Positions 16,672 to 52,322 of a DNA stretch of 64,000 bases are shown piece by piece. The notes beneath the pieces were generated by a model. That model worked only from the letters and a program-made list of their open reading frames with translations. It did not search any database and was not told the origin of the DNA. Position numbers and translations under genes: made by a program. Within the stretch, counting starts at the first letter, position 1, and the number at the start of each line of letters is the position of its first letter. Source of the DNA: Ignisphaera sp. (GTDB lineage Archaea; Thermoproteota; Thermoprotei_A; Sulfolobales; Ignisphaeraceae); assembly GCA_038889075.1 (NCBI GenBank), contig JAWAHS010000001.1, positions 128,001 to 192,000 on the forward strand, in the 5' to 3' direction.

Positions 16672-16812
16672 GTCTATTGTGTGGATCGCGGCATTGCACA
16701 GTTCAATCATTCTTTCAAGTTATTATCTATTATCTATTCATAGCATTTATAGCAATCTGTTAAAATACAGTATTTTAACTGTGTATATAATTTTCATTAA
16801 AATGACTTCAAC

Positions 16813-33524: not shown

Positions 33525-34424
33525 ATGTTAATAGGGATTTTAACCCAAAATCCTAATGGGTGGGCATCGTCTAGACTTATAAAAGCTATTGAACTGTTAG
33601 GACATAGAGCATTTCCATTTAGATTTAGAGATGTCGTTACCCATATTGATGATGGGCTATTCAAAGTAATTGTAAATGATCTGGATATAGTTAGGGAGAT
33701 CAATGCTATCATTGTGAGGCCTATTGGTAGATGTAGTCTTGAGTGGGCAATTTTTAGAATGGACTTGCTCTACGCCCTCCAAGACTACGGTTTAACAATA
33801 GTAAATAAACCACAGGCGATAGAGAGATGTGTAGATAAGTTTAGGGCACTATATCTCTTACAGCTTCGTGGGATTCCAGTACCGGAGACTATTGTGACAG
33901 AAAATGCTGCACTTGCACATGAATATTCAAAGCGTCTTAGGAATAGGGAAGTGGTTGTTAAGCCGATATTTGGATCTAGGGGTCACGGTTCTACAAAGAT
34001 AGTATTAAGCGATAGGGATGTTCTCTGGGAAGTGCTTCACGCAATGGCATTTACAAAGCATGTACTTTATGTCCAGAAGTTTTTACGCCATGGCGGCATG
34101 GATATAAGGGTCTTAGTTATAGGTGATAGAGTTATAGCATCTATGTATAGAGTTGCACCGAGAGGTATGTGGAAAACCAATGTAGCACAGGGAGCCCAAC
34201 CACTAGCCATAGAGAGGCTTAGCCCTGAAATTGAGGATATTGCAATAAGGTCAGCAAGAGCTGTAGAATGCGATGTAGCTGGGGTAGACATTGCTGTAGC
34301 TGATGGAAGGCCATATGTACTTGAGATTAATAGTCAGCCAGGGTGGAGAGGTCTTCAGAGCACTACTGAAAGGGATATCGCATTGGAAATAGTAAAGTAT
34401 GTTATAGAAAAAGCAAAAAAATAG
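33525..34424 (+). CDS. RimK-family ATP-grasp glutamate ligase (MptN/CofF/Orf5-like)
   Basis: DKF, VKPIFGSRG, DIRVLV, WKTNVAQG, LEINSQPG; converges on mch. Confidence 0.85.
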   Translation: MLIGILTQNPNGWASSRLIKAIELLGHRAFPFRFRDVVTHIDDGLFKVIVNDLDIVREINAIIVRPIGRCSLEWAIFRMDLLYALQDYGLTIVNKPQAIERCVDKFRALYLLQLRGIPVPETIVTENAALAHEYSKRLRNREVVVKPIFGSRGHGSTKIVLSDRDVLWEVLHAMAFTKHVLYVQKFLRHGGMDIRVLVIGDRVIASMYRVAPRGMWKTNVAQGAQPLAIERLSPEIEDIAIRSARAVECDVAGVDIAVADGRPYVLEINSQPGWRGLQSTTERDIALEIVKYVIEKAKK

Positions 34425-34425
34425 T

Positions 34426-35388
34426 TTAACCTAGACTTAAAGCTATAGAATTTTTAATAACACTAATGTTTATGTAACCGGCCTTGAACGTTCTACCAGA
34501 GCTGACATTATTTACAGTAACCATAGCAGGTGCAAATACATTTGGATCAACCTTATAGAGAATCTCCTCGCCAAACTGCTTTACGAGAACTACAAATGAT
34601 TTACCATAATCTCTAGAGGAAGAGCTGGGAGTTTTCTTCACATACTCCTCAAGTTTTGCATCATCTGGATAGCTAACTATATAGTACGTGGATCCTCCAT
34701 AGAGTAACATATCGTTTGTTCTACCCATCATTACTAAGGGATCTGGGTGGAGAGGTGCTATGGGACATACGCCAAATCCGTATCTAATACACTTTATATC
34801 GAATCCTATTGTGTTAAATTTAAATATGCCAGTCTCAACTATCCTTGCACTCACCTGCACACTACCAGCTATACTATTTGGTGCTACCACCATAATATAG
34901 ATATTTTTAGATTCAACACCGGTTTCATTACCGATATACTTTATTACATCTTCACTAGGCATTCTACTCGTCTCTAGGACAAGGGCAGCTTCATCAGACT
35001 GTTCTGTATAGCCTATACTTTCAAGGAGTTTCCTAGGCTTTTTAGCAAGCACTCTTGCAGGTCCACTACCATTAGCAAAGAAATCTCCTACCCTAATTCT
35101 CCAGCCAGCTAGCTGGGAAGCAATACACGATTCGATTGGATGGTCTGTCGATACAGCTACAGCAGGCAATACTATATCTTCAATAAGTAGGGGTGTTAGG
35201 GATACTGCGGCGAGTCCTCCAAGACAAACCTTGGAGACGACTATACCAGCATCTATACTGCCACTAGCCTTAACACCAGCATCAACTACTGTCGCACCTC
35301 CTATATTTAGGATCTCTACCTTAAGCTCGTCAGCCATATCAATACCCTTTTTAATTATGTCAACTGCAAGCTTATTCATAGGTTTCAC
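34426..35388 (-). CDS. mch: Methenyl-H4MPT cyclohydrolase
   Basis: SQLAGW, GSGPAR, VQVSARIVE, MGRTND, FAPA. Confidence 0.95.
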   Translation of the reverse strand: MKPMNKLAVDIIKKGIDMADELKVEILNIGGATVVDAGVKASGSIDAGIVVSKVCLGGLAAVSLTPLLIEDIVLPAVAVSTDHPIESCIASQLAGWRIRVGDFFANGSGPARVLAKKPRKLLESIGYTEQSDEAALVLETSRMPSEDVIKYIGNETGVESKNIYIMVVAPNSIAGSVQVSARIVETGIFKFNTIGFDIKCIRYGFGVCPIAPLHPDPLVMMGRTNDMLLYGGSTYYIVSYPDDAKLEEYVKKTPSSSSRDYGKSFVVLVKQFGEEILYKVDPNVFAPAMVTVNNVSSGRTFKAGYINISVIKNSIALSLG

Positions 35389-36266
35389 GGTATTCTCACC
35401 TCTTCAATAAGTTGTAGTAGGGGCTGTAGAATAGCTTTATTCTCTTCTAGTGATACTGCGAGAGTTCCCCTTCCAGAGGCAAGGGCATCTCCTATAAATA
35501 TGGCAAAAGGCTTCTTAAATACTCTTCCCCTTGCCCTAACCTCACCTACTATAGAGTCTATATAGAAGCTAGGTAGTATTCCTCCAATACCACCAACTAT
35601 AATTATTCTACCACCGGACATTCTTGCACCAACAAAATCGCCACAGTTTCCCTGTACAATGATTAACCCCCCAGTCATATATCCCCCAACCATATTACCA
35701 GCACTCTTTTCAACTATTATTGTACCGCCAGCCATACCCAACCCAATATACGATCCTGCATTACCATGGATTATTATCGCACCATCCTTCATACCCTTTC
35801 CAGGCTTTTCACCAGGGAGCTTTGCTCCTATAAAGTTTCCAGCATCGCCAAATACCTCTATCGAGCCGCCTTTCATCTTAGCGCCCAGCCAGTTTCCAGC
35901 AGATCCCTTGATCACTATATTGCCTTTAGACATTTTATAGCCAGTTAAGGGACCAGCGCTACCCTCAACGATAATCCTTCCACCATCCATTTTATAGCCG
36001 AGATATCTGATCTTGCTAGTACCATCACCTAGTACTATAATTTCTATGTTTTCAGGATTCGGTGGAAGCGTGGCTGGGCTCTCAACATCGAATAAATCTT
36101 CTAAAACGGTCTCTCTACCACCCTCTATTATCTTAATGTTCTTTACATCACTATTTCTTAGACTAGCTATTCGATCAGGTCTAAGTGCCCTTAAATCTAT
36201 TGGAACAGTAGGTCTAGCCTTTAGCCTTACATAAACGGATATCTTCTCCTGTGACATCCGAATCAC
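35385..36266 (-). CDS. fwdC: Formylmethanofuran dehydrogenase subunit C
   Basis: GxxMxxGxIxVxG beta-helix repeats; follows fwdA. Confidence 0.93.
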   Translation of the reverse strand: MIRMSQEKISVYVRLKARPTVPIDLRALRPDRIASLRNSDVKNIKIIEGGRETVLEDLFDVESPATLPPNPENIEIIVLGDGTSKIRYLGYKMDGGRIIVEGSAGPLTGYKMSKGNIVIKGSAGNWLGAKMKGGSIEVFGDAGNFIGAKLPGEKPGKGMKDGAIIIHGNAGSYIGLGMAGGTIIVEKSAGNMVGGYMTGGLIIVQGNCGDFVGARMSGGRIIIVGGIGGILPSFYIDSIVGEVRARGRVFKKPFAIFIGDALASGRGTLAVSLEENKAILQPLLQLIEEVRIP

Positions 36267-36267
36267 C

Positions 36268-37986
36268 CTATAGCTTAGGCTCCACTCTGATTTCCTTCAA
36301 TCTCTTAATCTCATGATCTCCAATCACAAAATTTTCAAGTGAGATTGTATAGTACTGTTTAAATCTATCCTTAAGATATGCCTCAAATTCCTTACGTATA
36401 TCCTCAGAGATAGCTATGTATGGATTGACGGAATACGTCTTACCATAAACAGACTGTACTATTTCCCCCTCCTTGACTACAATCTCACCATCTTTAATAA
36501 CACACCATGCTCTTTGAAATGCCTTTAGAATTTTCTCATATTCTCTACTAGGATCTATAACTCTGGGATCAATATCATATATTGCAACATCAGCATCGGC
36601 ACCTACACCGAGATGCCCCTTCATAGTTTCTAGCCCTAGGAGTTTGGCAGGTGCAGCTCTAGTAATGATGACCAGTTCATATAGTGTAATCTCTCTATCT
36701 ATAGATGGAAGTACACACCTTCGTAGAGCTCTTTGGTTTACCTCCTTTAGTGTTTCATCTCGATACTTTTTACTCATAGCCCACGCAAATATCTTTGGAT
36801 AATCCGTAAATACTCCAGCATTAGGGTGATCTGTTGTTATAAAGCTCCTCCAAGGATCTCTTGATAGTAGTAGAACCTCAAGACCTATTGCCCACTGTAT
36901 GGTATTTACATAACTCTTCTTACGGTATCTATATGGCACTATTCCTGAGGCTGCTTCATTCTCGATATCAGCATTTGCCCACTTCCACCTAGTTAAATGG
37001 TATAATATGAATTCAAAGGGAGCATCGGCTGTCATGGTAGTTGCTTCACCAAATGTTACCTGTCCAAGATCTAGTGTTACATAGGGATTTACATTAAGTT
37101 CATTGGCTATTGCTTCGCCACCGCTTTCCAACGTTGCCCACGAATCTCCTCCATATCCCGTAAATTGTACGTGTGTAATATGGATGCTATTTCTATTTCT
37201 TAGTGCAAAATTCCTTCCAAGTTTCATGGTATTTAGTGTTGTTATGTAGTTTCCTGGGAAGCCCAGTCTGTTGCAGTGTACATGTATTGTGTGAGGAAGA
37301 TTTAGAGATTCATTTGCTTCGCCAGCTAGCTGTACTATATCCTTAGGTGTTAGGTTGTACCCGGGAACCTGGTCGTCTAGGTCCAAACCTACTTTACCCA
37401 TCATCCAAGCAGCATCGCTTCCTGGGTCAACAAGCTTTAGAGCATAGGCTTTTGTCGCATATAAAAGCCATGCTAGATAAGTCTTCAATAAATCTTTTCT
37501 ATTCTCAGCCATAAGATCTAGAGCAAGCCAATTGGAATCAACGAGTACAAAGACCATTTTATCGATAATTGGTATCGCATTAAGTTCGTCATGGGCATGC
37601 CTCATTTTTAGGGGTGCACATGCAGGTTCAGCAACAAGTGTATAGCCCATCATAGCATATTTATACCCTATAGCAAAGACATTGGGTACAGTTCTGCCCG
37701 TCATGGCTCTTCTGAACGGTAGCTTACTTGGAATATTAGTTAGATAGTGGTCTTCAGGTCTCATAAGTCTTCCAGTATTGACCTTGGGTCCGGCTATATG
37801 GGAGTGTATATCTATTCCTCCAGCTAGAACTAATCTTCCACCAGCGTCTATTACCATAGCTTCAGATTCTCTTATTCTACCTGGATCGACTATCCTACCA
37901 TCTCTAATACCAATATCCATCAGCTCTCCTTTAATATCGTTAAGAGGATCTATCACAAAACCATTTTTTATAATGATGTCCACCAT
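36268..37986 (-). CDS. fwdA: Formylmethanofuran dehydrogenase subunit A
   Basis: DIHSH, GRLMRPEDH, HVHCNRLG, HITHVQF, TMTADAP, TTDHPN. Confidence 0.96.
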   Translation of the reverse strand: MVDIIIKNGFVIDPLNDIKGELMDIGIRDGRIVDPGRIRESEAMVIDAGGRLVLAGGIDIHSHIAGPKVNTGRLMRPEDHYLTNIPSKLPFRRAMTGRTVPNVFAIGYKYAMMGYTLVAEPACAPLKMRHAHDELNAIPIIDKMVFVLVDSNWLALDLMAENRKDLLKTYLAWLLYATKAYALKLVDPGSDAAWMMGKVGLDLDDQVPGYNLTPKDIVQLAGEANESLNLPHTIHVHCNRLGFPGNYITTLNTMKLGRNFALRNRNSIHITHVQFTGYGGDSWATLESGGEAIANELNVNPYVTLDLGQVTFGEATTMTADAPFEFILYHLTRWKWANADIENEAASGIVPYRYRKKSYVNTIQWAIGLEVLLLSRDPWRSFITTDHPNAGVFTDYPKIFAWAMSKKYRDETLKEVNQRALRRCVLPSIDREITLYELVIITRAAPAKLLGLETMKGHLGVGADADVAIYDIDPRVIDPSREYEKILKAFQRAWCVIKDGEIVVKEGEIVQSVYGKTYSVNPYIAISEDIRKEFEAYLKDRFKQYYTISLENFVIGDHEIKRLKEIRVEPKL

Positions 37987-37987
37987 T

Positions 37988-39730
37988 TTAAGTCAACCTT
38001 TTTAACTTTTTAACTCTATTGATAAGTCTGGAAAGGATTTCCGTATCGCATAGTACGCCTTTTGGAGGGTCTACAAGTCGCTTAACTTTAAGTGGGACAT
38101 CATCTAACCTGTACACTGTTCCCTCACACTCTATACCGGTAACAGCAGATGGTATAAGGATGTCCGCAACACTAGCAGTTAATGACCAGAAAGGATCTAT
38201 AACTATCTTTGGGATCTTCATTAGATTCTCAACTGCTTTTTGTGGGAAGTGCGCCACGGGATCGCTGGCAATTATTAAAGCCGCATCTACATCTGAATTT
38301 ATGAGTAGATCTATAGTTGTTGTCACACCTGGAATCATCTTTGGAAATCCTCTTGAAAATTCTACACCATATGGATAACCTGTTAGCCAAAGCATTGCAT
38401 GATTTGAACCTGTAACATTGTAGTGACCACGCATTGGTAGAAGAGTCCACTTGGTCCACTCATTAAGTTCCTGTACAAGTCTTATAACCTCTTCAAGATT
38501 CTTGTACTTTGCACCTCCTTGTGTCAACCCCATGCCGAAGAATATAACACCGAATTTAGCTGTTTTCATAACCTCTACAAGTTTGTATACCTCCTCCCTT
38601 GGAACACCAGCTACCTTGGGACTCTCTATCTCATAGTCTCTTAGAGCCATTCTTAGGGCTGTGAATAGCTCGTAATCTTTACCGGGCTCTATTTGTATAA
38701 AGATATCGGCAAGTTTAGCTGTATCACTCCTTCTCACATCTATCACAATGATCTTTCTCTCCTTACGTCCCTTCACGAATTTTCCATCTGGAAGAACAAC
38801 ACGTCTAATGTGATTTATGTGTGCATTCATTGGATTACAGCCCCAGAACACTATGGTATCTGCTAGATTCATGGCCATACCCAATGTAATTCGAACTGTA
38901 CCCACCTCTTGAACCGCCAATACTGTTGGGCCATGACATAGCGTAGTAGTGTTATCAACAACACCACGGGTAATTTCAGCAAGCTCTACGGCAAGCTCTG
39001 TAGCTTCTACACATGTATTCGACAGACCATAGATTAAGGGATACTTGGCATTAGCTAAAATTTCAGCTGCTCTATCTATGGCGTACTCAAGATCGACCTC
39101 TATAAAATTTCCATTCTTTACAGTTCTAATCATGGGGGTTAGAACTCTGTGTTTATAATAGTTCATGAACTTTGCATGTCCTATTGGACAAGCATTTACG
39201 ACTCTAACAGTTTTTTCACCATCTAGCTCCACGCTAAGGAAATCACATACTTCACCACAGAATGTACATGGTACATCATGTACCACTTTTTTAATACCTG
39301 TTGTCAAGGATCTTTCTGTTATCTTGTAATTGATTTTCTCAGCTCCAAGGAATCTGAATATAGCATCGAGCGGAGTTGCCTCCTCTGATGTAGCCTCAAC
39401 ATATACATCAACGTTTTTTAATGATGGCATACCGGTTCCTTCGGTTATTGGTAACGTTAGCACATTTGCCCAAGGACCCATTGGAACGAAAACTATACCT
39501 GGGGGAACGTCATTATTTGGTTTCACATTAACTACTATACTTCCATATACACTTGTAATCTTTGCATTATTCTTTATACCCAGAGCTTCGATATCCTTAG
39601 GGTTCATCTCAGCTATAGCAACGGCCTTTCTATATCCTTCGCCAAACTTCCCCTCTATTTCCATGGAACGTCCTTGCTCTGTTGTACGGCCTGTTACTAG
39701 CTTAAACATCAGTGGCATTGTTGCAATCAC
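37988..39730 (-). CDS. fwdB: Formylmethanofuran dehydrogenase D-B fusion
   Basis: N-terminal FwdD (TGRTTEQG..PMGPWAN..GMPSLK) in frame with FwdB (CTFCGEVCD, LCHGP, WGCNP, MRGHYNV). Confidence 0.93.
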   Translation of the reverse strand: MIATMPLMFKLVTGRTTEQGRSMEIEGKFGEGYRKAVAIAEMNPKDIEALGIKNNAKITSVYGSIVVNVKPNNDVPPGIVFVPMGPWANVLTLPITEGTGMPSLKNVDVYVEATSEEATPLDAIFRFLGAEKINYKITERSLTTGIKKVVHDVPCTFCGEVCDFLSVELDGEKTVRVVNACPIGHAKFMNYYKHRVLTPMIRTVKNGNFIEVDLEYAIDRAAEILANAKYPLIYGLSNTCVEATELAVELAEITRGVVDNTTTLCHGPTVLAVQEVGTVRITLGMAMNLADTIVFWGCNPMNAHINHIRRVVLPDGKFVKGRKERKIIVIDVRRSDTAKLADIFIQIEPGKDYELFTALRMALRDYEIESPKVAGVPREEVYKLVEVMKTAKFGVIFFGMGLTQGGAKYKNLEEVIRLVQELNEWTKWTLLPMRGHYNVTGSNHAMLWLTGYPYGVEFSRGFPKMIPGVTTTIDLLINSDVDAALIIASDPVAHFPQKAVENLMKIPKIVIDPFWSLTASVADILIPSAVTGIECEGTVYRLDDVPLKVKRLVDPPKGVLCDTEILSRLINRVKKLKRLT

Positions 39731-39733
39731 ATT

Positions 39734-40600
39734 CTATTCCTTTTTAACAGGCTTTTCAGCCAACTTCTCTTTAAACAGAACCTCACCCTTTGTACTATGT
39801 GGTGTTCTTACAACCGTATCTCCATACTTCTCAATCTCCCTAGCCTCATCTGCTAAGAGGGCAGCATACCTCATCATTTCATGCGCAGCTGCTACTATCG
39901 GGATGTACCTATCCGCTTCCTTGACTCTGAAGCATCCCTCAGTAGTTAAATCAGCGACATGCCGAGCAATTTCATAGGCTGCCATAGCTTTGACCTTTGC
40001 ATACGGATTCCTAAACTCAGCGTATCGTACAGCAGTTTCCTTGTCGACTACAATTTTGGGTAGCTGTATGTTCGTAATACCTTTTTTAATCTGATCGATT
40101 ACATTGTCGATCTCCCGTTGGAGGAGTCTGTAAACGCCTGTTATGGCCAGAACACGTATCAAATCGCCGTTGAAGAGCGTCATTTCAACGGGATCTAGAA
40201 ATTCTCTCCTTGCCCCAATCATTGAATCAGCTAAAACTATTATATAGCCAAACCCCTTAGCTTCAAGGTCCTTTACAATTTTGGATGTCGGTGCATCAGA
40301 TACTACAATGACATGTTTACCTTTCTCCTTAAGGGTTTCTCTAGCTTTTGTAGGTCCGGGGGTTGTTGCATTAGGGCTTACAACTAAATATATGTCGCAA
40401 TCTTCCCTAAAGCCTTTTTCAGCGAGTTCTAAACCATACTTTTCGTCATACATCTTGGCCCCTGTTGTGACAACTCTAACCTCAATGTCCATCCTATCAG
40501 CTCTTTCATCAAGGATGTACTCTAGGAGAGGTGCTGAAGCGATGCAACCAAGTTTTAGAATACATACCTTTACTGTTTTAGTTACCTCGGATTGAGACAT
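39734..40600 (-). CDS. mtd: F420-dependent methylene-H4MPT dehydrogenase
   Basis: KLGCI, LDERADR, SPN, DSMIGARREFLDP, AAHEM, RTPH. Confidence 0.96.
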   Translation of the reverse strand: MSQSEVTKTVKVCILKLGCIASAPLLEYILDERADRMDIEVRVVTTGAKMYDEKYGLELAEKGFREDCDIYLVVSPNATTPGPTKARETLKEKGKHVIVVSDAPTSKIVKDLEAKGFGYIIVLADSMIGARREFLDPVEMTLFNGDLIRVLAITGVYRLLQREIDNVIDQIKKGITNIQLPKIVVDKETAVRYAEFRNPYAKVKAMAAYEIARHVADLTTEGCFRVKEADRYIPIVAAAHEMMRYAALLADEAREIEKYGDTVVRTPHSTKGEVLFKEKLAEKPVKKE

Positions 40601-40658
40601 ATACCTTCCCTAAGAACTATTTTGTACTAAAGTACTTAAATCTTAATGATATAACATG

Positions 40659-41594
40659 TTACTGAATTTGTATATCGATATTCTTGGTTACCTCAAGAGC
40701 CTCCCTTAGATATAGATGGTATGGCCCAAGCTTGCCACCATAATTACCCGCATCGATCTTTACCACACCAGGTACTGTTGAAGCAGCTCGTATTGCTACA
40801 CCCATTGCAAATAATACATCCTCCTTCTTTAATCCATTTATAACAATCTCGTACACTGAATTAACCTCCTGTGGTAACTTGGAATCTTTAACAGCTCCCT
40901 TTAGTGTAGGACAGTAGAGATGGTTTGTTGTTGCTCTAAGCTTAGGATACTTTAGCGAGCCAACCTTGGAACCCGATCTCACTATACCACCTGGAAATGG
41001 TGTTATAACTCTCCTAGCGTATCTCCTTATGGCTTTAACAGCCTTCTCAGCAGCCATCAGACCAGCTTCACTACTCTTAGCTAGAATAAGAATGTTCCCC
41101 CCTGCAACACCTTTGATTACACCAAAGGAGTCCTCAATTATGAATTCACCTTCCATAACTGGAATCCTCCACACTTTCCTACCATGTAGTTCATCCTCTT
41201 TTTCAAAACCATCTCCAAATTTTGCAAGTGCGGTGCCCACACCCATTCTCCTTTTAGCCCATGGCAAACCATCGAATGCTGCTGTGGTAGGGCATGTGAG
41301 TATGGTTTGGCCAATCCGTGAAATTGTAATCATTTTAAGATTTACAGGATCTGTATGATAGAATTGAATTGCTATACCAACCCGCTTATCAGGTGTAAGT
41401 CTAGGCGATAAAAGGCATTCAATACCGGTTTCCCCAGGACTAGCAATGACAGAGGTACCGAAGCCTGTTGCAACCCGTCCAGCTATTAGTGCCCATTTAC
41501 GGTTCTTAGCTGTTACAATAATTCTTGTAGCATACATTGGGAATGCTTCTGCAAAAGTATCCTCAATTGAAGTACTTCCAATATCACGATTCAC
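40659..41594 (-). CDS. ftr: Formylmethanofuran:H4MPT formyltransferase
   Basis: IEDTFAEAF, TCPTTA, GVAGGN, SGSKVGS, EIVING, GNYGGKLG. Confidence 0.96.
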   Translation of the reverse strand: MNRDIGSTSIEDTFAEAFPMYATRIIVTAKNRKWALIAGRVATGFGTSVIASPGETGIECLLSPRLTPDKRVGIAIQFYHTDPVNLKMITISRIGQTILTCPTTAAFDGLPWAKRRMGVGTALAKFGDGFEKEDELHGRKVWRIPVMEGEFIIEDSFGVIKGVAGGNILILAKSSEAGLMAAEKAVKAIRRYARRVITPFPGGIVRSGSKVGSLKYPKLRATTNHLYCPTLKGAVKDSKLPQEVNSVYEIVINGLKKEDVLFAMGVAIRAASTVPGVVKIDAGNYGGKLGPYHLYLREALEVTKNIDIQIQ

Positions 41595-41681
41595 ATTTCA
41601 TCCCCTAAGAAATAGACCATTATTACTTATAAATTTTTAGCTCACAAGTACGTGGTGATGGATATTAAGAGGAGCTCATGA

Positions 41682-42440
41682 ATGAGGAGAATAGAGATCT
41701 ATGGGCTTAGAATAGACAAGGAAATTTTACCTGGGGATAATATAGCTGAAACGTTAATTATGGCAGCAGAAAGCAATGGTATTAGGATATTGGATGGTGA
41801 TATAATTGTCGTAAGTAGTAAGGTCATAGCTAAATCAGAGGGTCGAGTTGTTCCTCTGGATAGTGTGGAGCCGTCTGAGGAGGCTATGAGAATAGCTAAT
41901 ATAAGTAATAAGGATCCTAAACTAGTTGAATTGATATTGAGGGAATCAAAGGAAATTCTAAAAGTAGAGAGAAACAATATTATTGTGCTTACAAGACACG
42001 GTATTGTAGGAGCTAATGCAGGAATAGATCAGTCAAACACGGGAGGTACGGGAAAGGTTGTTTTGTTGCCTATAGATCCAGATGATTCAGCTAGGAAAAT
42101 TCGAAGATATATTAATGATAAGCTAGGAGTTAATGTAGCAGTAATAGTATCGGACACCTACGGCAGACCATTTAGAGAAGGACAAATCAATCTGGCAATA
42201 GGATTTGCAGGTATATGTCCGTACAGAGACTATAGGGGTCAAAGTGATAGGGATGGGTATATACTTAGAGTTAAGAATATTGCAATTGTGGATGAGATAG
42301 CAGCTGCCGCGGAGCTCGTTATGGGCCAATCAATAGAGAATACACCCTTTGCAATAGTTCGAGGAGTTGAATATGGTCGATGTGAGGAGGCCGGTTTTAA
42401 AGACATTGTAATGCCTAAAGAGCGGTGGCTGTTCAGATAA
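41682..42440 (+). CDS. cofE: F420-0:gamma-glutamyl ligase
   Basis: SKVIAKSEG, ANAGIDQSN, DTYGRPFREG, DEIAAAAELVMG. Confidence 0.93.
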   Translation: MRRIEIYGLRIDKEILPGDNIAETLIMAAESNGIRILDGDIIVVSSKVIAKSEGRVVPLDSVEPSEEAMRIANISNKDPKLVELILRESKEILKVERNNIIVLTRHGIVGANAGIDQSNTGGTGKVVLLPIDPDDSARKIRRYINDKLGVNVAVIVSDTYGRPFREGQINLAIGFAGICPYRDYRGQSDRDGYILRVKNIAIVDEIAAAAELVMGQSIENTPFAIVRGVEYGRCEEAGFKDIVMPKERWLFR

Positions 42441-42527
42441 ATAATCATAACATACCATATTGTGAAGCAGGGTAAATTTAAATACCATAGATTTAAATTC
42501 TACATATGTTACAGAGATTTAATGTGA

Positions 42528-43679
42528 TTGGCTTTGAGCAATACAAAGGTAACTAATGTATCGATGAACATAGATGTAGGTCTTTGTTCATTTTGTGGGG
42601 CATGTATAGCTATCTGTCCGACGCATGTAGGTTCAAAGAACCTTGATTACATTCCAGAGAAATCTGCCGATAAACCTGTTGTTAAGGATTTCCAAAAATG
42701 TGAGAAATGTAGACACACACTATGTATGCAGATATGTCCACAGTTAAACATACCGAGTAGCTCATTTAATACAAATAGTTACGGTTACCAAGGAGCATAC
42801 TATTCGAGGTCAAGGATGCAAGAAGTATTAAGTAGGGTACAGGATGGAGGGACGACCACAACACTTCTTCTTACAGCTCTAAGAGCAAAATTTGTGGACC
42901 ATGTATTAATCCTTAAAAAGGATGATGAATGGTATCCTAAACCTATGATTACTCAGAGTGAAAATGATGTTATAGAAGCAGGTGGTTCGAAATATGTTTT
43001 CTCTCCAATCCTTTCGGTTTTAGAAGAGGTTATAGATCGAATTGATATTGGTAAAGTAGCAGTTGTTGGTATTCCGTGTCAGTTGAGGGCTCTTGAAAAC
43101 ATTAGTAGACTTGGATTTAAACATAATAGTATCGCAGCTCTTAGAATCGGGTTATTCTGCATGCACAGTTTTTCAAGAGATAGAATGGAATTGATACTAA
43201 AGGAGCTTGGCGTACAATTCAAAGATGTGGTAAAAATGAATATAAAGAAAGGAAAGCTATGGTTTACACTAAGAGATGGAAGAATATTAGATTACCCATT
43301 AAGAAAAGCAGAGAAAGTACTCAGACCAGCATGTAGACAGTGTCCAGAGCTCTTTTCACCGTATGCCGATGTAAATGTGGGATCCATAGGAGCAGAGGAG
43401 AATTGGAATAGCCTATTGATTATGAATTCGAGAGGAAGAGAGCTTGTTGAAAAAGCGATTGACATGGGACTATTAGAGATTAAGCCTATGGACAATAGCG
43501 GTACTGAAACCATAGAAAAATATGTAAATAAAAAGGTTAGTGAAGCATTAAAGTATAGAGAGCTATATACTAAGGAGTTCCAAAATGTTCTACTCATAAC
43601 TCCTACAAAGAGAGGTAGAAAATTAAATGAGATCTTAGAACACAAGTCTGGAAGAAGTATCTATCTATCACCACTCTAG
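42528..43679 (+). CDS. FrhB/FdhB/FpoF-family F420-binding flavoprotein with N-terminal ferredoxin domain
   Basis: CSFCGACIAICP and CEKC..CMQICP; QDGG, GSKY, GIPCQ, GLFC, CRQC. Confidence 0.9.
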   Translation: MALSNTKVTNVSMNIDVGLCSFCGACIAICPTHVGSKNLDYIPEKSADKPVVKDFQKCEKCRHTLCMQICPQLNIPSSSFNTNSYGYQGAYYSRSRMQEVLSRVQDGGTTTTLLLTALRAKFVDHVLILKKDDEWYPKPMITQSENDVIEAGGSKYVFSPILSVLEEVIDRIDIGKVAVVGIPCQLRALENISRLGFKHNSIAALRIGLFCMHSFSRDRMELILKELGVQFKDVVKMNIKKGKLWFTLRDGRILDYPLRKAEKVLRPACRQCPELFSPYADVNVGSIGAEENWNSLLIMNSRGRELVEKAIDMGLLEIKPMDNSGTETIEKYVNKKVSEALKYRELYTKEFQNVLLITPTKRGRKLNEILEHKSGRSIYLSPL

Positions 43680-43681
43680 GG

Positions 43682-44158
43682 GTGGCTACAATGGTTAAAA
43701 AGATATTTATAGACATAGCGAAATGCATTGGCTGTCATGCTTGTGAAATAGCCTGTGAAGAAACTCATGGAAAATCGTACATATCTGTATATGAGGTTAC
43801 GGACTTCCTTACAATACCATTGAAGTGCATGCATTGTGAGAAAGCACCATGTATCAGAGTATGTCCGACTAGAGCTATGAGGAGAGCTGATGGTATCGTT
43901 GTCGTTGATGATGCTAGATGCATTGGCTGTACCTCTTGTATATCAGTATGTCCATTTGGAGCACCAGAGCTCAATATGAAAGGAATTATAGAAAAGTGTG
44001 ATCAATGTAGAATGCGTACTATGAAGGGTCTACTACCAGCATGTGTAGCAGTATGCCCTACGGGAGCACTAGTATTTATGGAGGAAGAGGAGTTTACCAA
44101 ATTAAGAAGATTAAATGTAGTAAAAGAACTGAGTGAAAAATTAGTAGCATATCAATGA
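43682..44158 (+). CDS. 4x[4Fe-4S] electron-transfer protein (CooF/HycB-like)
   Basis: CIGCHACEIAC, CMHCEKAPCIRVCP, CIGCTSCISVCP, KCDQC..CVAVCP. Confidence 0.9.
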   Translation: MATMVKKIFIDIAKCIGCHACEIACEETHGKSYISVYEVTDFLTIPLKCMHCEKAPCIRVCPTRAMRRADGIVVVDDARCIGCTSCISVCPFGAPELNMKGIIEKCDQCRMRTMKGLLPACVAVCPTGALVFMEEEEFTKLRRLNVVKELSEKLVAYQ

Positions 44159-44175
44159 ATGAAAATGAAATATAT

Positions 44176-44922
44176 CTAGAATGTGTACAGTTCATTCCAA
44201 TGTTTTTCGATTGCAATTTTTAAAGCGTTGATTGCTTCTCTAGAAACTCTCCCAAGTCTATTGCCGCTACATGCAGCCGTCCTAACGCCAATTACATTAA
44301 AACCCAGACTTACACATGTGGGGATGTGCTCAGCTCTTAAACCACCAGCAATAGCTGTATATAGACCGTTCCTATTAGCATTTAGAACAAATTCCTCTAA
44401 ATATCGAAGAGGGATGTGATCAAAGGTTGATTTGCCATCCTTAATTCGTGTATCAATCATAACCCCTTGAACTTTAGCTACTTTAGCTAGGTCAATGACT
44501 TTTAGAGGCTCTAATGTACCTATACTTTTCCAATCGGCATAACTAACTAAAACAATATCAGTTTCATTATTACAGTAGGCAATAGTTCTTCTAATCTGTG
44601 AAACTGTGGATACAGCTTTATCGTAATCGTTCATCTCTATTCCTATTTTGATGTAATCGACGTCAAGTAGAGATAGTGTGTAGGCTATATAGCTAAGGGC
44701 ATGACTATATTCTCTTACATCACCTATCGCTACGCTTATCTCCTTATAGTTTTCAACGCTATTCACAATGCTGAGGACGACGTCTAGCGATGGAAGTCCT
44801 AGGGAGCCTATAGAGGGATCTTTAACATCAATTATATCAGCACTGCTATTTATTACCTCTGGTACTTCATCTACAGTCCATATGCTGATAAGAAGTTTTG
44901 GTTTTACCCTTACAATGGACAT
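44176..44922 (-). CDS. mfnB: (5-formylfuran-3-yl)methyl phosphate synthase
   Basis: LLIS, DIIDVKDP..GSLG, DYIKIG, MIDT.IKDG, GVRTAAC. Confidence 0.9.
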   Translation of the reverse strand: MSIVRVKPKLLISIWTVDEVPEVINSSADIIDVKDPSIGSLGLPSLDVVLSIVNSVENYKEISVAIGDVREYSHALSYIAYTLSLLDVDYIKIGIEMNDYDKAVSTVSQIRRTIAYCNNETDIVLVSYADWKSIGTLEPLKVIDLAKVAKVQGVMIDTRIKDGKSTFDHIPLRYLEEFVLNANRNGLYTAIAGGLRAEHIPTCVSLGFNVIGVRTAACSGNRLGRVSREAINALKIAIEKHWNELYTF

Positions 44923-45058: not shown

Positions 45059-47206
45059 ATGAATGTCTGTGGACATCTAGAAGGTGATGCGCTATTGGCT
45101 AATGGAGGTGCAGATCTATTTAGACCTAGGAGCGTAGCGGTTATTGGAGCGTCTAGGGAACCAGGCAAGGTTGGATATGCAGTACTAAAAAATATTATTA
45201 ATAGTGGCTTTCAAGGAAAGATATATCCTATAAATCCTAAGGCAGAAGAAATACTGGGTATTAAGGCATACAAATCGGTGTTAGATGTTTCTGACGATAT
45301 AGATCTGGGTGTAATTGTTGTACCTGCTTCCATAGCTCTAGATGTTGCTGAAGAATGTGGTAAGAAGGGTATTAAGCATCTTGTTGTAATATCAGCTGGC
45401 TTTAAGGAGGTAGGGGGTGAGGGTATTGAGAGAGAGAAAAAGCTTGTGGATATAGCTAGAAAATATGGTATGAGGATGGTAGGGCCTAACTGCCTTGGTA
45501 TTATAGATACGTATACACCCATAAATGCATCATTCTCAGCTACTATGCCAAAAAGAGGTAGTATAGCTTTTATATCACAGAGTGGTGCGCTCCTTACCGC
45601 AATTCTTGACTGGAGTATTAAGAAGGGTATAGGTTTTTCAAGAATTGTAAGCTTAGGCAATAAAGCTGATTTGAACGAAGCTGACTTTATCCAGGCTGTT
45701 GAAGAGGATGTTAATACAAAAGTTGTTTTGCTATATTTAGAATCTATTGAAAATGGTAGAAAGCTTATAGAGGTAGCGGCTAGAGTTGGTAGGAAGAAGC
45801 CTATTGTTCTACTTAAGGGTGGTGTTACAGAGGCTGGTGCTAGAGCTGCTATGAGCCATACTGGAGCTATGACAAGTAGTACAACGATTCTCGAAGCTGG
45901 GCTTAAAAAGGCAGGTATCTTGATTGCTCGTAACCTTTCAGAGCTATTCGATTATGCTGTGGCGTTTAGTTATCAGCCAATACCTTTAAATAATAGAATT
46001 GCTGTAGTAACCAATGCCGGAGGACCGGGAGTTATAACATCGGATTTGATTGTGTCTAGGGGACTGAGGCTAGCATCATTCACTTCAGATACTATAAATA
46101 GTCTTAGGTCAAAGCTTCCGCCAGCAGCAGCTGTGTACAATCCTGTTGATGTATTAGGGGATGCTAGAGCTGATAGGTATAGCTATGCTATAGAGACCGT
46201 GTTGAACGATGATAACGTAGATGGTCTGATAGTTATACTCACGCCCCAAGCTATGACAGAGCCTGTAGAGACTGCAAAGGCTATGCTAAGACTGAATAAA
46301 AAGCATCCAAACAAGCCGATGGTGGGAGTATTTATAGGGGGTGATATGGTTGAGGAGGCATCTAGAATTCTTATGGAGAATGGTGTTCCAGTATATGATT
46401 TGCCTGAAAGGGGTGTTATTGCAATTTATGGTCTGTGTAGATATAGAGAAAGTCTAGAGTATTTGGAGAGAATTTTAGAGAGGGCAATATTCTTTGATGT
46501 TGATAAAGCTACGGCACTATCTATTATAGATAGCGTTAAGAGTGAAAATCGTAAAACATTGCTAGAATCGGAAGCTAAGGATTTAATAAAAAGCTATGGT
46601 ATTCCAGTAGCACCTACACGTCTTGCGAAAAATGAAGATGAGGCTGTTGAAATAGCTAGTAGGATCGGCTATCCAGTGGTACTGAAGATAGCTTCGCCAG
46701 ATATTATGCACAAGACAGATATAGGAGGTGTTGTAATGAATATAAATTCGGAGAAGGAAGTAAGAGAAGCCTTTAGAACAATAATTGACAGAGCATATAA
46801 ATATGCTCCAAGGGCACTGGTCTACGGAGTAGCAGTTCAGAAAATGGTTCCCAGAGGTAGGGAGGTAATAATTGGTGTATCTAAGGATCCATCATTTGGT
46901 CATGTTATAATGTTTGGTCTTGGCGGTATATATACAAATGTATTCAGAGATGTTTCATTCAGACTCGCCCCCCTCTCAGCGTATGAGGCTAGAGAGATGA
47001 TTAGTGAAACGAAAGCATATACGTTACTAAGGGGTTATAGAGGGGAGCCACCAGCAGATGTATCCTCAATAGTAAATATACTGTTAAGAGTTAGTCAATT
47101 GGTTACCGAGATACCCGATATAGTAGAAATGGATATTAACCCCCTCTTTGTATATAATGAAGGTATGGGTAGTCTAGCTATAGATGTAAAGGTGGTACTT
47201 TCATAG
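45059..47206 (+). CDS. ADP-forming acetyl-CoA synthetase, fused alpha-beta
   Basis: CoA-binding GPNCLG, SQSG, phospho-His SHTG, NAGG, ATP-grasp HKTDIGGV..DINP; probable start TTG 45095. Confidence 0.92.
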   Translation: MNVCGHLEGDALLANGGADLFRPRSVAVIGASREPGKVGYAVLKNIINSGFQGKIYPINPKAEEILGIKAYKSVLDVSDDIDLGVIVVPASIALDVAEECGKKGIKHLVVISAGFKEVGGEGIEREKKLVDIARKYGMRMVGPNCLGIIDTYTPINASFSATMPKRGSIAFISQSGALLTAILDWSIKKGIGFSRIVSLGNKADLNEADFIQAVEEDVNTKVVLLYLESIENGRKLIEVAARVGRKKPIVLLKGGVTEAGARAAMSHTGAMTSSTTILEAGLKKAGILIARNLSELFDYAVAFSYQPIPLNNRIAVVTNAGGPGVITSDLIVSRGLRLASFTSDTINSLRSKLPPAAAVYNPVDVLGDARADRYSYAIETVLNDDNVDGLIVILTPQAMTEPVETAKAMLRLNKKHPNKPMVGVFIGGDMVEEASRILMENGVPVYDLPERGVIAIYGLCRYRESLEYLERILERAIFFDVDKATALSIIDSVKSENRKTLLESEAKDLIKSYGIPVAPTRLAKNEDEAVEIASRIGYPVVLKIASPDIMHKTDIGGVVMNINSEKEVREAFRTIIDRAYKYAPRALVYGVAVQKMVPRGREVIIGVSKDPSFGHVIMFGLGGIYTNVFRDVSFRLAPLSAYEAREMISETKAYTLLRGYRGEPPADVSSIVNILLRVSQLVTEIPDIVEMDINPLFVYNEGMGSLAIDVKVVLS

Positions 47207-48283: not shown

Positions 48284-49177
48284 CTACATCTTTTTAAATC
48301 TCAACACTATAATGGGATAGTGCTTAACTCTTCTGAGAGATAGCCATGTGACAGATCTAAAATGTTCCATACCCAACGCTTTAACCATTTCAATAATGTT
48401 CCTTCCAATACCATAACCACGGAATTTCTCGCCTATACGTGCTAGCCTAAGTAATGTATAGAGATCGAGTTGAATACCTATATATGCTGTCGGGGTTGGA
48501 AATTTCTCAAATAAATTTCTAAATACCTTTCCAAGAATGTAGGCAGCAACACCGAGATCTATAATACCCTTTACCGTAGAGGGTCTTGTTGCTATTGCAA
48601 GAGATTTAATATTCTTTGGAACAAAACAGCTATCGGTATCAACAACGAGAATGTTTATGTTTGCGGATAGCTTACCCTCTATGGATTGTTTCATCTCTCT
48701 AATTATCTTAGCAACATTTTTAACTGGTATAGATACGTAGTAGTACGGAAGATTTGTAGCATCTATACCAGATTCAGAAAGAGGTTTTAAAAAATGCCGC
48801 ATTCCACCATAGTATAATGCTAATTTCTTGTGCTTTGCTAGAAGATCTATAGGGGTTTCACTTACAATTCTAATTGTATTTATATCTGTAAACAGTTTTC
48901 TGAGAAGATATCCCCAGAGAATTCTTGAGGTAAAGAATGTCATCATAGACGTCATAGGATCAACATTCACCGCATTCTCATCATAGATATTACCAAGAGC
49001 TATACTGAGGGCCTTGTCAGATATAACAATAATATCGTTATTTTTAATTGTATTACCATATACTTTTACAATCTCCTTAACAACATCTGTACCGGGCAGC
49101 CAATACTTACAAGGCTTTCTAATAACGCATAGCCTGTATCTGCTCCTTAGATTTAGATAATTCACGAATTGTTGCAC
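48284..49177 (-). CDS. Second, divergent CofE-like (F420 ligase family) protein
   Basis: YWLPG, DIIVISDKA, GIDATN, VVDTD. Confidence 0.7.
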   Translation of the reverse strand: MQQFVNYLNLRSRYRLCVIRKPCKYWLPGTDVVKEIVKVYGNTIKNNDIIVISDKALSIALGNIYDENAVNVDPMTSMMTFFTSRILWGYLLRKLFTDINTIRIVSETPIDLLAKHKKLALYYGGMRHFLKPLSESGIDATNLPYYYVSIPVKNVAKIIREMKQSIEGKLSANINILVVDTDSCFVPKNIKSLAIATRPSTVKGIIDLGVAAYILGKVFRNLFEKFPTPTAYIGIQLDLYTLLRLARIGEKFRGYGIGRNIIEMVKALGMEHFRSVTWLSLRRVKHYPIIVLRFKKM

Positions 49178-50662: not shown

Positions 50663-51634
50663 TCATACCGCCCTTCTATAGCTCTTCACTATATTTAAAA
50701 CTTTTTGTGCTAATATCACCTTAGCATCTATGCTATCCATAGCTATATTAGCTAGTGTCACATCTACTCCTATTTCTCCTTTTATCCTATGTGCTAAGTG
50801 TTCATCGGAAGAGTCTATAACGATGTCTGATATGATATCAGAATACATCTCAGCAATACTATATGCCGTTGGTTCGTAGCCTAAATACTTCAATAGAACA
50901 TGGGCTACCCCAGTAAAGGCTCTACCATTCCTAATTGGGGAAACTGCCACTATTGGTACCCCTGCTTCACGTTTCTTTCTAATACATTCTCTTATACCTC
51001 TAGTGCTAAGTATTGGATTTATGCTTAGGAATGGGTTGCTAGGTCCTATTACAATTATATCAGCGTTAGTTATAGCATTTAGAACTTCAGGTGGGGCCTT
51101 AGCTTCACCTATACCTCTGTATTCGATCTTGAAGACTTTTACCTTTTCAGGGTTCTGTTTAGCTGCATATTTAACGAGATATTCCTGAATGTGAAGGTCA
51201 CCTAGATCTGTATATATGTGTGTTTCTACATGTTCATCGCTCATAGGTAGAATTACCCCTTTAGCTTTAAGGACTTTAGAAATATACCTTGTAATCTCTG
51301 TTAATCTAAATCCTTGTCTAAGCATGTGGGTTCTAACTATGTGTATAGCTAGATCTCTATCTCCTAATACAAACCAGTCTAAAACGTTAAATCTCCTAAT
51401 CATACTGTATGTATTGAAAGTATCATTAATAATGCCCCAATACCTGCCAGTATCAAGTAATCCACAGGCAAGGTATGTAGCAGAATCGACGTCAGGTGCT
51501 ATGTAAAGGTCTAAAAGCCATATATTGTCAGCAGTGTTAACCACTACAGTTATCGTTTCTGGATCAATCAGTTCCCTTAATCCTTCAAAAAGCTTTAGAC
51601 CACCCTGGCCACCAGTAAGCAGGACAATATTCAC
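50663..51634 (-). CDS. cofD: 2-phospho-L-lactate transferase
   Basis: GGQGGLK, VNTAD, PDVD, LGDRD, PMSD, GPSNP. Confidence 0.95.
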   Translation of the reverse strand: MNIVLLTGGQGGLKLFEGLRELIDPETITVVVNTADNIWLLDLYIAPDVDSATYLACGLLDTGRYWGIINDTFNTYSMIRRFNVLDWFVLGDRDLAIHIVRTHMLRQGFRLTEITRYISKVLKAKGVILPMSDEHVETHIYTDLGDLHIQEYLVKYAAKQNPEKVKVFKIEYRGIGEAKAPPEVLNAITNADIIVIGPSNPFLSINPILSTRGIRECIRKKREAGVPIVAVSPIRNGRAFTGVAHVLLKYLGYEPTAYSIAEMYSDIISDIVIDSSDEHLAHRIKGEIGVDVTLANIAMDSIDAKVILAQKVLNIVKSYRRAV

Positions 51635-51647
51635 GTATGCGTCACCA

Positions 51648-52322
51648 CTATTTGTGTCTAATTAGGCTAGTCCCATACAGGGACAGAATTCTACATAGTT
51701 CCTTTCCTCCGTATATGCTACATAGCTGTTTGGCTATTATGAGATCCTCAGCTGTATCTATATCTATAGATGTACCTAGAGTGCTATATACATTTACCCT
51801 TATTGTTTTTTGGAGAGCTCTAGCTAGATGTTTTTGAAAGCTATTTTTACCGTGCATAAGCTCTATCATGAGTGGATACCTTTGTAACATTATATTTGTA
51901 CCGCCATCAATTGAAGGCGTGAGAACTATATCAAATCCATCTCTATAGAATCCTACGATGGTATTCACATCTTCACTTGAGACAAACGGAGCATCTGCTA
52001 CCCCAAAAATTACTGCATCGATTTTATATGGTATTGTTTCAAGGGCTTTGAGATAGGCCTCAATCTGTCCATTGCCACCATCATAAACTATATCTATGGT
52101 GAAATCTCGAACAGTTTCTCTTATACTTGGATCTGGGGTCACTAAGATTGTCTTATCAACATATCTCGAGCATGCATAGACGTGAATGACGTCTCTTAGC
52201 ATAGCTTTTACAATCTCTATACGAATAGATTTTTCTATTTCTTTAAGCCTGGATTTCGCTCTATTAAGATCTTTAATCGGTACCAGGGCAACAATCATTA
52301 TTAGCAACCATAGGATCTGCAT
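51648..52322 (-). CDS. cofC: 2-phospho-L-lactate/PEP guanylyltransferase
   Basis: VPIK..AKSRL, DGGTN, SFQKH, DIDT.EDL. Confidence 0.92.
   Translation of the reverse strand: MQILWLLIMIVALVPIKDLNRAKSRLKEIEKSIRIEIVKAMLRDVIHVYACSRYVDKTILVTPDPSIRETVRDFTIDIVYDGGNGQIEAYLKALETIPYKIDAVIFGVADAPFVSSEDVNTIVGFYRDGFDIVLTPSIDGGTNIMLQRYPLMIELMHGKNSFQKHLARALQKTIRVNVYSTLGTSIDIDTAEDLIIAKQLCSIYGGKELCRILSLYGTSLIRHK

Follow-up and report, generated by a model that had tools for sequence, protein, structure and literature searches.

A candidate ferredoxin-linked F420 oxidoreductase encoded divergently from the formylmethanofuran dehydrogenase operon of an Ignisphaera archaeon

Introduction

Archaea that possess the tetrahydromethanopterin-dependent Wood-Ljungdahl pathway outside the methanogens (among them Bathyarchaeia, Korarchaeia, Asgard archaea and Ignisphaera) need reduced coenzyme F420 (F420H2) for the enzymes Mtd and Mer, and usually lack an F420-reducing hydrogenase. 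For Bathyarchaeia the source of F420H2 has been termed unclear (PMC7886697). We analysed a window of 64,000 nucleotides (C1:128001-192000) from the genome of the hot-spring archaeon Ignisphaera sp., which measures 1.95 Mb and is 99.6% complete. In this window, a plus-strand trio of genes lies head to tail, consisting of cofE, an open reading frame (ORF) of the FrhB family, which we call FrhBl, and an ORF for a four-cluster Fer4_11 protein, which we call HycBl. The trio diverges across 87 nucleotides from ftr, which belongs to a minus-strand operon of the order mch-fwdC-fwdA-fwdD/B fusion-mtd-ftr (34426-41594).

The question raised by this locus is which electron carriers the FrhBl-HycBl pair connects. 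The initial annotation had proposed that it may be an electron outlet for Mtd and for a formylmethanofuran dehydrogenase (Fwd) devoid of FwdF and FwdG, with two alternatives: an F420-coupled Fwd, or an adaptor between F420H2 and ferredoxin or hydrogenase. All three genes of the trio, including the two extra N-terminal motifs of the FrhB-family protein, lie where that annotation had placed them, and the part of the proposal that concerns Mtd and the F420 pool is supported below, while the part that concerns Fwd finds no support in the distribution of the genes. The reading that we favour, and to which we give about an even chance on the basis of sequence, is that FrhBl-HycBl would be a soluble ferredoxin-linked F420 oxidoreductase serving Mtd and Mer.

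Results

FrhBl and HycBl form one unit

By both of its Pfam domains, which score above gathering (Table 1), FrhBl belongs to the FrhB/FdhB/FpoF superfamily, and binding of FAD and F420 is predicted. The protein is the sole PF04432 match in the genome and contains exactly 12 cysteines, 12/12 of which are invariant in 10 homologues. Eight of them make up two N-terminal four-cysteine motifs (C20/23/26/30 and C58/61/66/70, the second with the unusual spacing CX2CX4CX3C), and the four in the core (C184, C211, C269 and C272, all invariant in 10 sequences) are the probable ligands of a [4Fe-4S] cluster. The score against the FrhB equivalog model TIGR03289 was 183.6 bits, below the cut-off of 331.5, and the FpoF/FqoF models NF040616 and NF006808 gave 163 and 164.2 bits without reaching their cut-offs of 475 and 444. 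A full HMMER scan with FrhBl against 1.84 billion representatives returned 3633 matches at E<=1e-3, 1565 at 1e-10 and 210 at 1e-30.

Among solved structures the best match of FrhBl was 8rja_E (167.5 bits, E 3.9e-48), in which FrhBl residues 14-350 align with chain residues 12-355. Judging by its order in the entry and its length of 359 amino acids, chain E of 8RJA is the FwdI described in PMC11493965. Further solved matches were true FrhB (150 bits over 252 residues), ACDS zeta (144.4 bits), Fsr (108-122 bits) and FdhB (50-60 bits). Per aligned residue, FrhB scores above FwdI (150 bits over 252 residues versus 167.5 over 337), and the total score of FwdI is the higher one solely because FrhB is devoid of the N-terminal domain.

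The 16 cysteines of HycBl form four four-cysteine motifs, all of which are invariant in 10 relatives. HycBl stays below every equivalog cut-off (DmsB, HybA, HydN, FdnH and others), with DmsB as the best of them at 105.9 versus 214.1 bits. Its solved matches, with E values from 1e-24 to 4e-19, are four-cluster subunits of pterin enzymes and hydrogenases, and include those of polysulfide/thiosulfate reductase, formate dehydrogenase-N, arsenate reductase and AorA of aldehyde oxidoreductase.

FrhBl and HycBl form one unit. In Methanococcus aeolicus, a protein of 550 amino acids (P0008) contains FrhBl followed by HycBl in one chain. Its N-terminal part is 38% identical to FrhBl and includes the unusual second motif, the linker aligns with the C-terminal tail of FrhBl, and residues 389-531 are 39% identical to HycBl (E 2e-35). 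A second fusion of 539 amino acids, with FrhB domains and Fer4_11, is encoded in a metagenome-assembled genome (MAG) of the Desulfurococcaceae (L007:8001-9620). Among the best 150 FrhBl representatives, a C-terminal Fer4_11 domain was found in 2 of the 30 proteins of at least 430 amino acids, which rank 2nd and 5th overall; one is of the L007 type and the other is 66% identical to P0008. The remaining 28 long representatives show N-terminal extensions, extra two-cluster domains, TrmB domains or other architectures. The pair itself, together with the gene order from mch to a cofE-like gene, is kept in 3/3 Ignisphaera loci (L002-L004). The cofE gene adjoins FrhBl in L002-L005, and in L006 one gene (CitG) stands between them.

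Other fusions were noted among the same 150 representatives (P0058, P0130, P0063, P0071 and P0153). P0058 joins a hydrogenase small-subunit-like domain to FrhB, P0130 (906 amino acids) joins FrhB to Fer4_20 and Pyr_redox_2 in a GltD/NfnB-like manner, and fusions of FrhB with a TrmB helix-turn-helix domain occur too. For the fusion P0031, the protein atlas returned generic FrhB clusters only, with scores below 0.9.

The gap of 2 nucleotides between FrhBl and HycBl given by the initial annotation is correct for a GTG start of HycBl at 43682. It does not hold for the ATG at 43691, the position at which 3/3 orthologues begin and which is probably the true start; the gap then measures 11 nucleotides and contains GGGGTG. 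Likewise, translation of FrhBl probably starts at the TTG at 42534, which matches the orthologues, rather than at 42528.

The unit is present in an RNA library. In run X15, one contig of 2284 nucleotides (41785-44067, ~99% identical) extends from the interior of cofE to the interior of HycBl. Separate contigs cover mch-ftr (7666 nucleotides, 33939-41604) as well as mfnB and ACD, with a break in the ftr/cofE spacer, and in a DNA run a single contig spans all 15.9 kb and crosses this spacer. Although such contigs cannot show transcript ends and the library may hold DNA, they hint that cofE-FrhBl-HycBl is a transcription unit of its own; contig depths were not used for ranking expression. Runs X23 and X24 contained next to nothing. 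The spacer between cofE and FrhBl (42441-42527, 87 nucleotides) holds TTTAAATA-like stretches and could contain an internal promoter, although the contig from the RNA library continues across it.

Within the genome, the paralogues closest to HycBl (128-131 bits) are four-cluster proteins encoded beside GltD-like (Pyr_redox_2) flavoproteins. In a tree of four-cluster proteins, these Pyr_redox_2-associated paralogues group together (95/95) and HycBl forms an Ignisphaera-only clade; 7/13 inner branches are open, and the long branches of the fusions leave both their placement and a shared origin with HycBl undecided. The top HycBl match outside the genus, a four-cluster protein of L005 (160 bits), was not counted as an orthologue since it groups with the Pyr_redox_2-associated paralogues (95/95).

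The unit follows F420 and not Fwd

In a survey of 151 genomes of the class, which are related so that the counts are not independent, 27 encoded FrhB_C, 9 Mtd, 20 FwdA and 15 CofD. The FrhB-family gene was present in 8/9 Mtd-positive genomes, the exception being G011, and in 14/15 CofD-positive ones, where the exception (G021) is 78% complete. On the other hand, it was missing in 11/20 FwdA-positive genomes, six of which are genus-mates with a completeness of 93-99%. Where FwdA occurs without Mtd, FrhB is missing as well in 10/11 genomes, and the one that departs from this (G026) has a completeness of 67%. In the genus, 7/8 sampled genomes encode FwdA, and 1/8 each encode FrhB, Mtd and CofD, this being the same genome (G102) in all three cases. 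These results indicate that the FrhBl-HycBl unit follows F420, not Fwd. The proposed link to Mtd and F420 is thus supported, and it agrees with the position of the unit in an island for F420, tetrahydromethanopterin (H4MPT) and methanofuran.

Four FrhB-less genomes were examined, three of them from genus-mates (G058, G107 and G093) and one from another family (G117). All four carry the order ftr-fwdD/B-fwdA-fwdC-mch without FwdF or FwdG, so related Fwd enzymes lacking these subunits exist in genomes without any FrhB-family protein. Beside ftr, in the slot of Mtd, they encode an MtdA/B-like dehydrogenase (PF09176 plus a Rossmann domain). Its copies lie at L091:14121-15035, L092:5592-6506, L093:6169-7086 and L099:6023-6931, of which the L092 copy was assigned by identical length and position and was not scanned. 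Hence, this C1 gene cluster exists in the lineage in two versions, an F420-type one and, in these relatives without F420 genes, an NAD(P)-type one. In the FwdD/B tree, NAD(P)-type islands from three families group in a single clade (96/97) that is separate from the clade of the F420-type Ignisphaera islands (100/100).

Two genomes encode a DUF2193 protein (510-533 amino acids, 7-9 cysteines) near ftr. In L094 its gene (15618-17150) adjoins ftr, and in L099 (4142-5743) the MtdA/B-like gene lies between the two. G011, the genome with Mtd that is devoid of FrhB and CofD, is one of them. Most of the Asgard loci (Promethearchaeota and related) among L021-L081 carry tandem FrhB-like genes, one of ~500 amino acids followed by one of ~370, and in some of these loci a third FrhB-like copy lies nearby.

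The genome offers ferredoxin-using enzymes and no other F420 link

Just past the window end lie mtrH, mer (TIGR03555, 443.8 bits), the 13 genes of an Mrp-Mbh [NiFe] hydrogenase, genes for a GltD-like flavoprotein with a four-cluster protein of its own, cooC, cdhA, cdhB and cdhC. The window is part of a complete archaeal Wood-Ljungdahl island, with Mer, Mrp-Mbh and carbon monoxide dehydrogenase/acetyl-CoA synthase (CODH/ACS) encoded just downstream. Earlier work had reported this pathway for Ignisphaera MAGs (bioRxiv 10.1101/391417). The genome encodes two Mbh-type hydrogenases, and both large (NuoD-like) subunits keep the NiFe cysteine motifs CGIC and DPCxSC. Since both complex-I-like loci are thus [NiFe] hydrogenases, there is no Fpo/Fqo complex. 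Elsewhere, genes were found for a soluble group-3-like hydrogenase, an Hdr-Mvh cluster, a pyruvate:ferredoxin oxidoreductase and two aldehyde:ferredoxin oxidoreductases, the last with four-cluster and flavoprotein neighbours.

Genome-wide searches returned no Fno over the cut-off and no FrhA either (best match 106.9 versus 392.5 bits, located in the Mvh-like cluster, where the small subunit matches VhuG better than FrhG). As the initial annotation had noted, no frhA/G, fdhA or fpo gene was found in the annotated parts of the window; the ORFs at ~24.7-31 kb were listed but not scanned. Because Mer, Mtd and CODH/ACS are present, together with a single FrhB-family gene and no FrhA or Fno over the cut-off, a link to F420 is needed and no alternative to FrhBl is at hand.

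The fwd operon holds no gene for an F, G or H subunit, in agreement with the initial annotation, and no small two-cluster gene. That annotation named fwdF/G located elsewhere as one of the observations that would speak against its proposal; in the whole genome, the best FwdF score was 48.3 bits versus a cut-off of 375. No ORF with more than four Fe-S motifs was detected among 5784 genome ORFs. The small two-motif (8-Cys) proteins that were found include PorD, the delta subunit of pyruvate:ferredoxin oxidoreductase, and a generic 74-amino acid ferredoxin; FwdG and FwdH were not searched by family model. The FwdB part of the fusion matches 5t5i_B, the FwdB of M. wolfei, with an E value of 7.6e-138, and keeps both the N-terminal cysteine cluster motif and the metal-site Cys-His. 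It is therefore a redox enzyme that needs an electron partner, and a reading of the fwd genes as an Fhc-type non-redox hydrolase was rejected because these cluster and metal ligands are kept. The 74-amino acid protein, a free two-cluster ferredoxin, is encoded elsewhere in the genome.

Features of the window

The positions of the genes at the divergent region are compiled in Table 1.

Table 1. Genes and spacer of the divergent C1 region; positions refer to the window.
Feature	Position	Strand	Evidence
cofE (F420-0:gamma-glutamyl ligase), opens the cofE-FrhBl-HycBl unit	41682-42440	+	TIGR01916, 258.8 bits vs cut-off 180.65
FrhBl, 383 aa	42528-43679	+	PF04422, 66.3 (gathering 22); PF04432, 125 (gathering 23.3)
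HycBl, 158 aa, 16 Cys	43682-44158	+	PF13247 (Fer4_11), 77.8 bits vs 26.2
ftr (formylmethanofuran:H4MPT formyltransferase), opens the divergent operon	40659-41594	-	NF002554, 402 vs 297
Mtd (F420-dependent methylene-H4MPT dehydrogenase)	39734-40600	-	NF002162, 388.9 vs cut-off 297
mch, fwdC, fwdA, fwdD-fwdB fusion	34426-39730	-	TIGR03120, TIGR03122, TIGR03121, TIGR03129, all over cut-off
mfnB (methanofuran biosynthesis), convergent to HycBl	44176-44922	-	PF04476, 197.5 bits
cofD and cofC (F420 biosynthesis)	50663-52322	-	TIGR01819, 282 vs 257.45; TIGR03552, 111.9 vs 105
ftr/cofE divergent intergenic region	41595-41681	.	87 nt, A+T-rich, TATA-like stretches

The cofactor and C1 island in the window comprises mptN, mfnB, ACD, a cofE-like gene, cofD, cofC, mfnE and mfnF, as well as a HisA/F-related gene, an MfnD-like gene, hypF and hypE. 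ACD (45059-47206) lies two genes away from the FrhBl-HycBl unit, and in eight Bathyarchaeia loci (L023, L024, L039, L042, L045, L050, L072 and L079) an ACD gene stands divergently beside an FrhB-like gene. The cofE-like gene (48284-49177, minus strand) encodes a protein of 297 amino acids that matches PF01996 weakly (40.5 bits) and NCBIfam not at all. It adjoins FrhB-like genes in L005, L007 and L013-L015, and is also found beside mptN and mtrH in NAD(P)-type C1 islands of CofD-less genomes (L099 and L100). Its product may therefore glutamylate a cofactor other than F420.

Outside the window, the Mrp-Mbh operon ends with genes for a GltD-like flavoprotein (340-357 amino acids, PRK12770 at 279 bits, below the cut-off) and a Fer4_11 protein with four clusters (C1:204243-205782, equal to L083:243-1782), separated by gaps of a few nucleotides. 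The same pair occurs in two genus-mates (L091:15183-16812 and L092:3816-5445), and it may constitute an NAD(P)H-linked module of the membrane-bound hydrogenase. On C8, a complete cluster codes for HdrC, HdrB, an HdrA2-MvhD fusion, MvhG and MvhA (C8:35969-41580, L103:2970-8580). The same contig carries an orphan gene for an FdhA-like W/Mo pterin enzyme (C8:17181-19145, L084:7182-9149; TIGR01591, 232.9 versus a cut-off of 666) with no iron-sulfur subunit gene beside it. Its orthologues contain one in-frame TGA in G058 and G107, which could be a selenocysteine codon, and one TAG in G412.

Discussion

FrhBl-HycBl as a proposed link between F420 and ferredoxin

In the reading that we favour, FrhBl-HycBl would be a soluble enzyme of two subunits that, by motif count, would carry one FAD and seven [4Fe-4S] clusters, three in FrhBl and four in HycBl. 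Hydride would be exchanged between F420/F420H2 and the flavin of FrhBl, and single electrons would pass from the core cluster of FrhBl through its two N-terminal clusters into the four-cluster chain of HycBl, whose far end would trade electrons with ferredoxin or a ferredoxin-dependent partner. The unit would in this way join the F420 pool of Mtd and Mer to the low-potential iron-sulfur pool used by pyruvate:ferredoxin oxidoreductase, aldehyde:ferredoxin oxidoreductases, CODH/ACS, Fwd and the Mbh hydrogenases. With the pathway operating in the reductive direction, as an electron sink that yields acetate through ACD, the unit would use reduced ferredoxin to make F420H2; in the oxidative direction, it would dispose of F420H2. 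Ferredoxin as the partner is suggested by the abundance of ferredoxin-using enzymes in the genome, namely the two Mbh hydrogenases and the pyruvate:ferredoxin and aldehyde:ferredoxin oxidoreductases.

There are precedents for such a role. In Methanosarcina mazei and Archaeoglobus, ferredoxin:F420 oxidoreductase activity has been ascribed to soluble FpoF/FqoF (PMC9012536, PMC10667645), and for Korarchaeia an orphan FrhB has been proposed to act between ferredoxin and F420 (PMC10667645). Like FrhBl, soluble FpoF/FqoF is an FrhB-family protein with an N-terminal two-cluster domain, and it stands between ferredoxin and F420 for Mtd and Mer, which is the role proposed here. FrhBl differs from it in that the FpoF models are not reached, the genome has no Fpo/Fqo complex, and FpoF is devoid of a dedicated four-cluster partner.

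Several observations weigh against this reading, apart from the relatedness of the genomes counted. Uncoupled reduction of F420 by ferredoxin would lose ~30 kJ/mol, as we calculate from potentials quoted in PMC11493965. G011 contains Mtd and neither FrhB nor CofD. CofD is missing in 13/27 FrhB-positive genomes, which makes the family broader than the proposed function. The difference between Mtd and the MtdA-like enzyme is no clean single-gene swap, an interpretation that was rejected on the FwdD/B tree in favour of two old island types. Finally, distant Thermoproteota relatives of FrhBl (35-38% identity) have no four-cluster partner. Exchange between F420 and ferredoxin thus does not in itself require HycBl, whose presence may signal a specific docking target.

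Fwd as a possible docking target

Such a target could be Fwd itself. HycBl would then replace FwdG and FwdF on FwdB and bear FrhBl as an FwdI-like F420 reductase, so that the oxidation of formyl-methanofuran would reduce F420 directly, as it does in Ca. Ethanoperedens. An F420-coupled Fwd was one of the two alternatives of the initial annotation. We consider this unlikely, though it is the most probable of the rivals. The best solved match of FrhBl is FwdI, over both the N-terminal ferredoxin domain and the core, although FrhB outscores it per aligned residue. The unit lies 87 nucleotides from the fwd operon, in divergent orientation, in 4/4 Ignisphaera-type loci; in G004 and G153, on the contrary, FrhBl and fwd are carried on different contigs. 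The operon is devoid of F and G, no FwdF exceeds the cut-off in the genome, and FwdB, with its [4Fe-4S] motif and its metal-ligand Cys-His, needs an electron partner. Four-cluster proteins are classic partners of W/Mo pterin enzymes, to whose iron-sulfur subunits the solved relatives of HycBl belong, and other four-cluster paralogues in this genome adjoin tungsten aldehyde oxidoreductases and flavoproteins.

The distribution speaks against a dedicated Fwd module, since 11/20 FwdA-positive genomes have no FrhB-family gene and the four examined share the F/G-less operon. In addition, the FrhBl-HycBl fusion occurs in Methanococcus, a hydrogenotrophic methanogen that must reduce CO2 at the Fwd step. 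Judging from the potentials given in PMC11493965, an enzyme obligatorily coupled to F420 could not reduce CO2, and the set of CODH/ACS and ACD would fit reductive use.

A membrane-bound hydrogenase as a possible docking target

Somewhat less probable still is that HycBl docks FrhBl onto Mrp-Mbh as the F420 input or output module of this membrane-bound [NiFe] hydrogenase. This would yield an F420H2-dependent ion-translocating hydrogenase, analogous to FpoF on Fpo. The nearest HycBl paralogues adjoin Pyr_redox_2 genes, and one such pair stands at the end of the Mrp-Mbh operon, here as well as in two genus-mates. The NiFe cysteine motifs are kept in both Mbh large subunits, Mer and the Mbh operon follow directly downstream of the window, and one relative (P0058) fuses FrhB to a hydrogenase small-subunit-like domain. 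The argument is, however, one from paralogy, in a four-cluster tree that is weakly resolved (7/13 inner branches open). Moreover, the unit lies outside the Mbh operon, ~22 kb away on the same strand, and standard potentials suggest that H2 formation driven by F420H2 would be endergonic at most H2 pressures.

We also hold a broader idea to be about as improbable as that, namely that the genus has interchangeable modules, each made of a coenzyme-specific flavoprotein (GltD-like for NAD(P)H, FrhB-like for F420) with its own four-cluster adaptor, that dock on Mrp-Mbh or on FwdB.

Other possible roles

Three further roles are, even taken together, improbable. FrhBl-HycBl might be the F420 arm of Hdr-Mvh, for which a complete HdrC-HdrB-HdrA2/MvhD-MvhG-MvhA cluster is available on C8, and FrhB-HdrA complexes have been proposed elsewhere (PMC10667645, PMC9012536); the cluster is unlinked to the unit and has a hydrogenase of its own. 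The pair might provide the beta and gamma subunits of the orphan FdhA-like enzyme, whose gene stands alone on C8, yet that gene is found in 12/16 genus-mates, five of them without FrhB, and was not found in the unit-bearing G102. It might also act at a redox step of F420 biosynthesis, such as dehydro-F420-0 reduction. The genetic linkage hints at this: of the first 14 related loci, 9 (L002-L007, L013-L015) have either cofE or the cofE-like gene beside or close to FrhBl, and RNA-library contigs join cofE to FrhBl. Against this, the island mixes enzyme and cofactor genes throughout, seven iron-sulfur clusters are unexpected for a biosynthetic reductase, and the cofE-like gene also occurs in CofD-less islands. 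Any role beyond these would come as a considerable surprise.

Comparison with known systems

FwdI and ACDS zeta of Ca. Ethanoperedens thermophilum (8RJA E and 8RIU B) possess the same N-terminal two-cluster domain and FrhB-type FAD/[4Fe-4S] core as FrhBl, of which they are the best and fourth-best solved matches (167.5 and 144.4 bits), and both connect F420 with a chain of iron-sulfur clusters. FwdI substitutes for FwdF, and its connection to FwdB runs through the two-cluster FwdG (PMC11493965), whereas the partner of FrhBl is a four-cluster Fer4_11 protein and its neighbouring operon contains no FwdG. Unlike FwdI, moreover, FrhBl is encoded in a unit of its own with cofE and is missing from 11/20 Fwd-positive relatives. 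Coupling of Fwd to F420 is held by the authors to be specific to ethanotrophs (PMC11493965).

FrhB and FdhB have in common with FrhBl both Pfam domains and the core cysteine ligands, and FrhB is the closest per aligned residue. They differ from it in that the TIGR03289 cut-off is missed and no FrhA exceeds its cut-off, FdhB scores only ~60 bits, and the FdhA-like gene does not co-vary with FrhBl. As for HycBl, it resembles PsrB/NrfC, FdnH, HycB and AorA in its 16 cysteines, four motifs and Fer4_11 domain, and is set apart by its encoded or fused partner, an FrhB-type F420 flavoprotein. In AorABC, a four-cluster protein bridges a tungsten enzyme and a flavoprotein, and the same logic would fit FrhBl-HycBl. 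We found no description of an FrhB-type F420 flavoprotein with a dedicated four-cluster partner in the literature searched, part of it as titles and abstract openings. The dedicated and sometimes fused four-cluster partner is thus a new variant within the known modular FrhB family.

Significance

FrhBl-HycBl is a defined two-gene candidate for the missing F420H2 link of Wood-Ljungdahl archaea outside the methanogens. Natural fusions of the two proteins are known, one of them in Methanococcus, a genus for which genetic tools exist, and Ignisphaera contains the pathway in both an F420-type and an NAD(P)-type form. Docking of the unit on Fwd or on a membrane hydrogenase would instead mean that F420-wired CO2-forming enzymes are not confined to ethanotrophs. 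Should the modular idea be true, the F420-type islands, with Mtd, CofCDE and FrhBl-HycBl, and the NAD(P)-type islands would be coenzyme versions of one respiratory and C1 machine. FrhBl-HycBl would then either be the first module known to feed F420 electrons into a group-4 membrane hydrogenase, or give a second F420-coupled Fwd, built independently outside the ethanotrophs.

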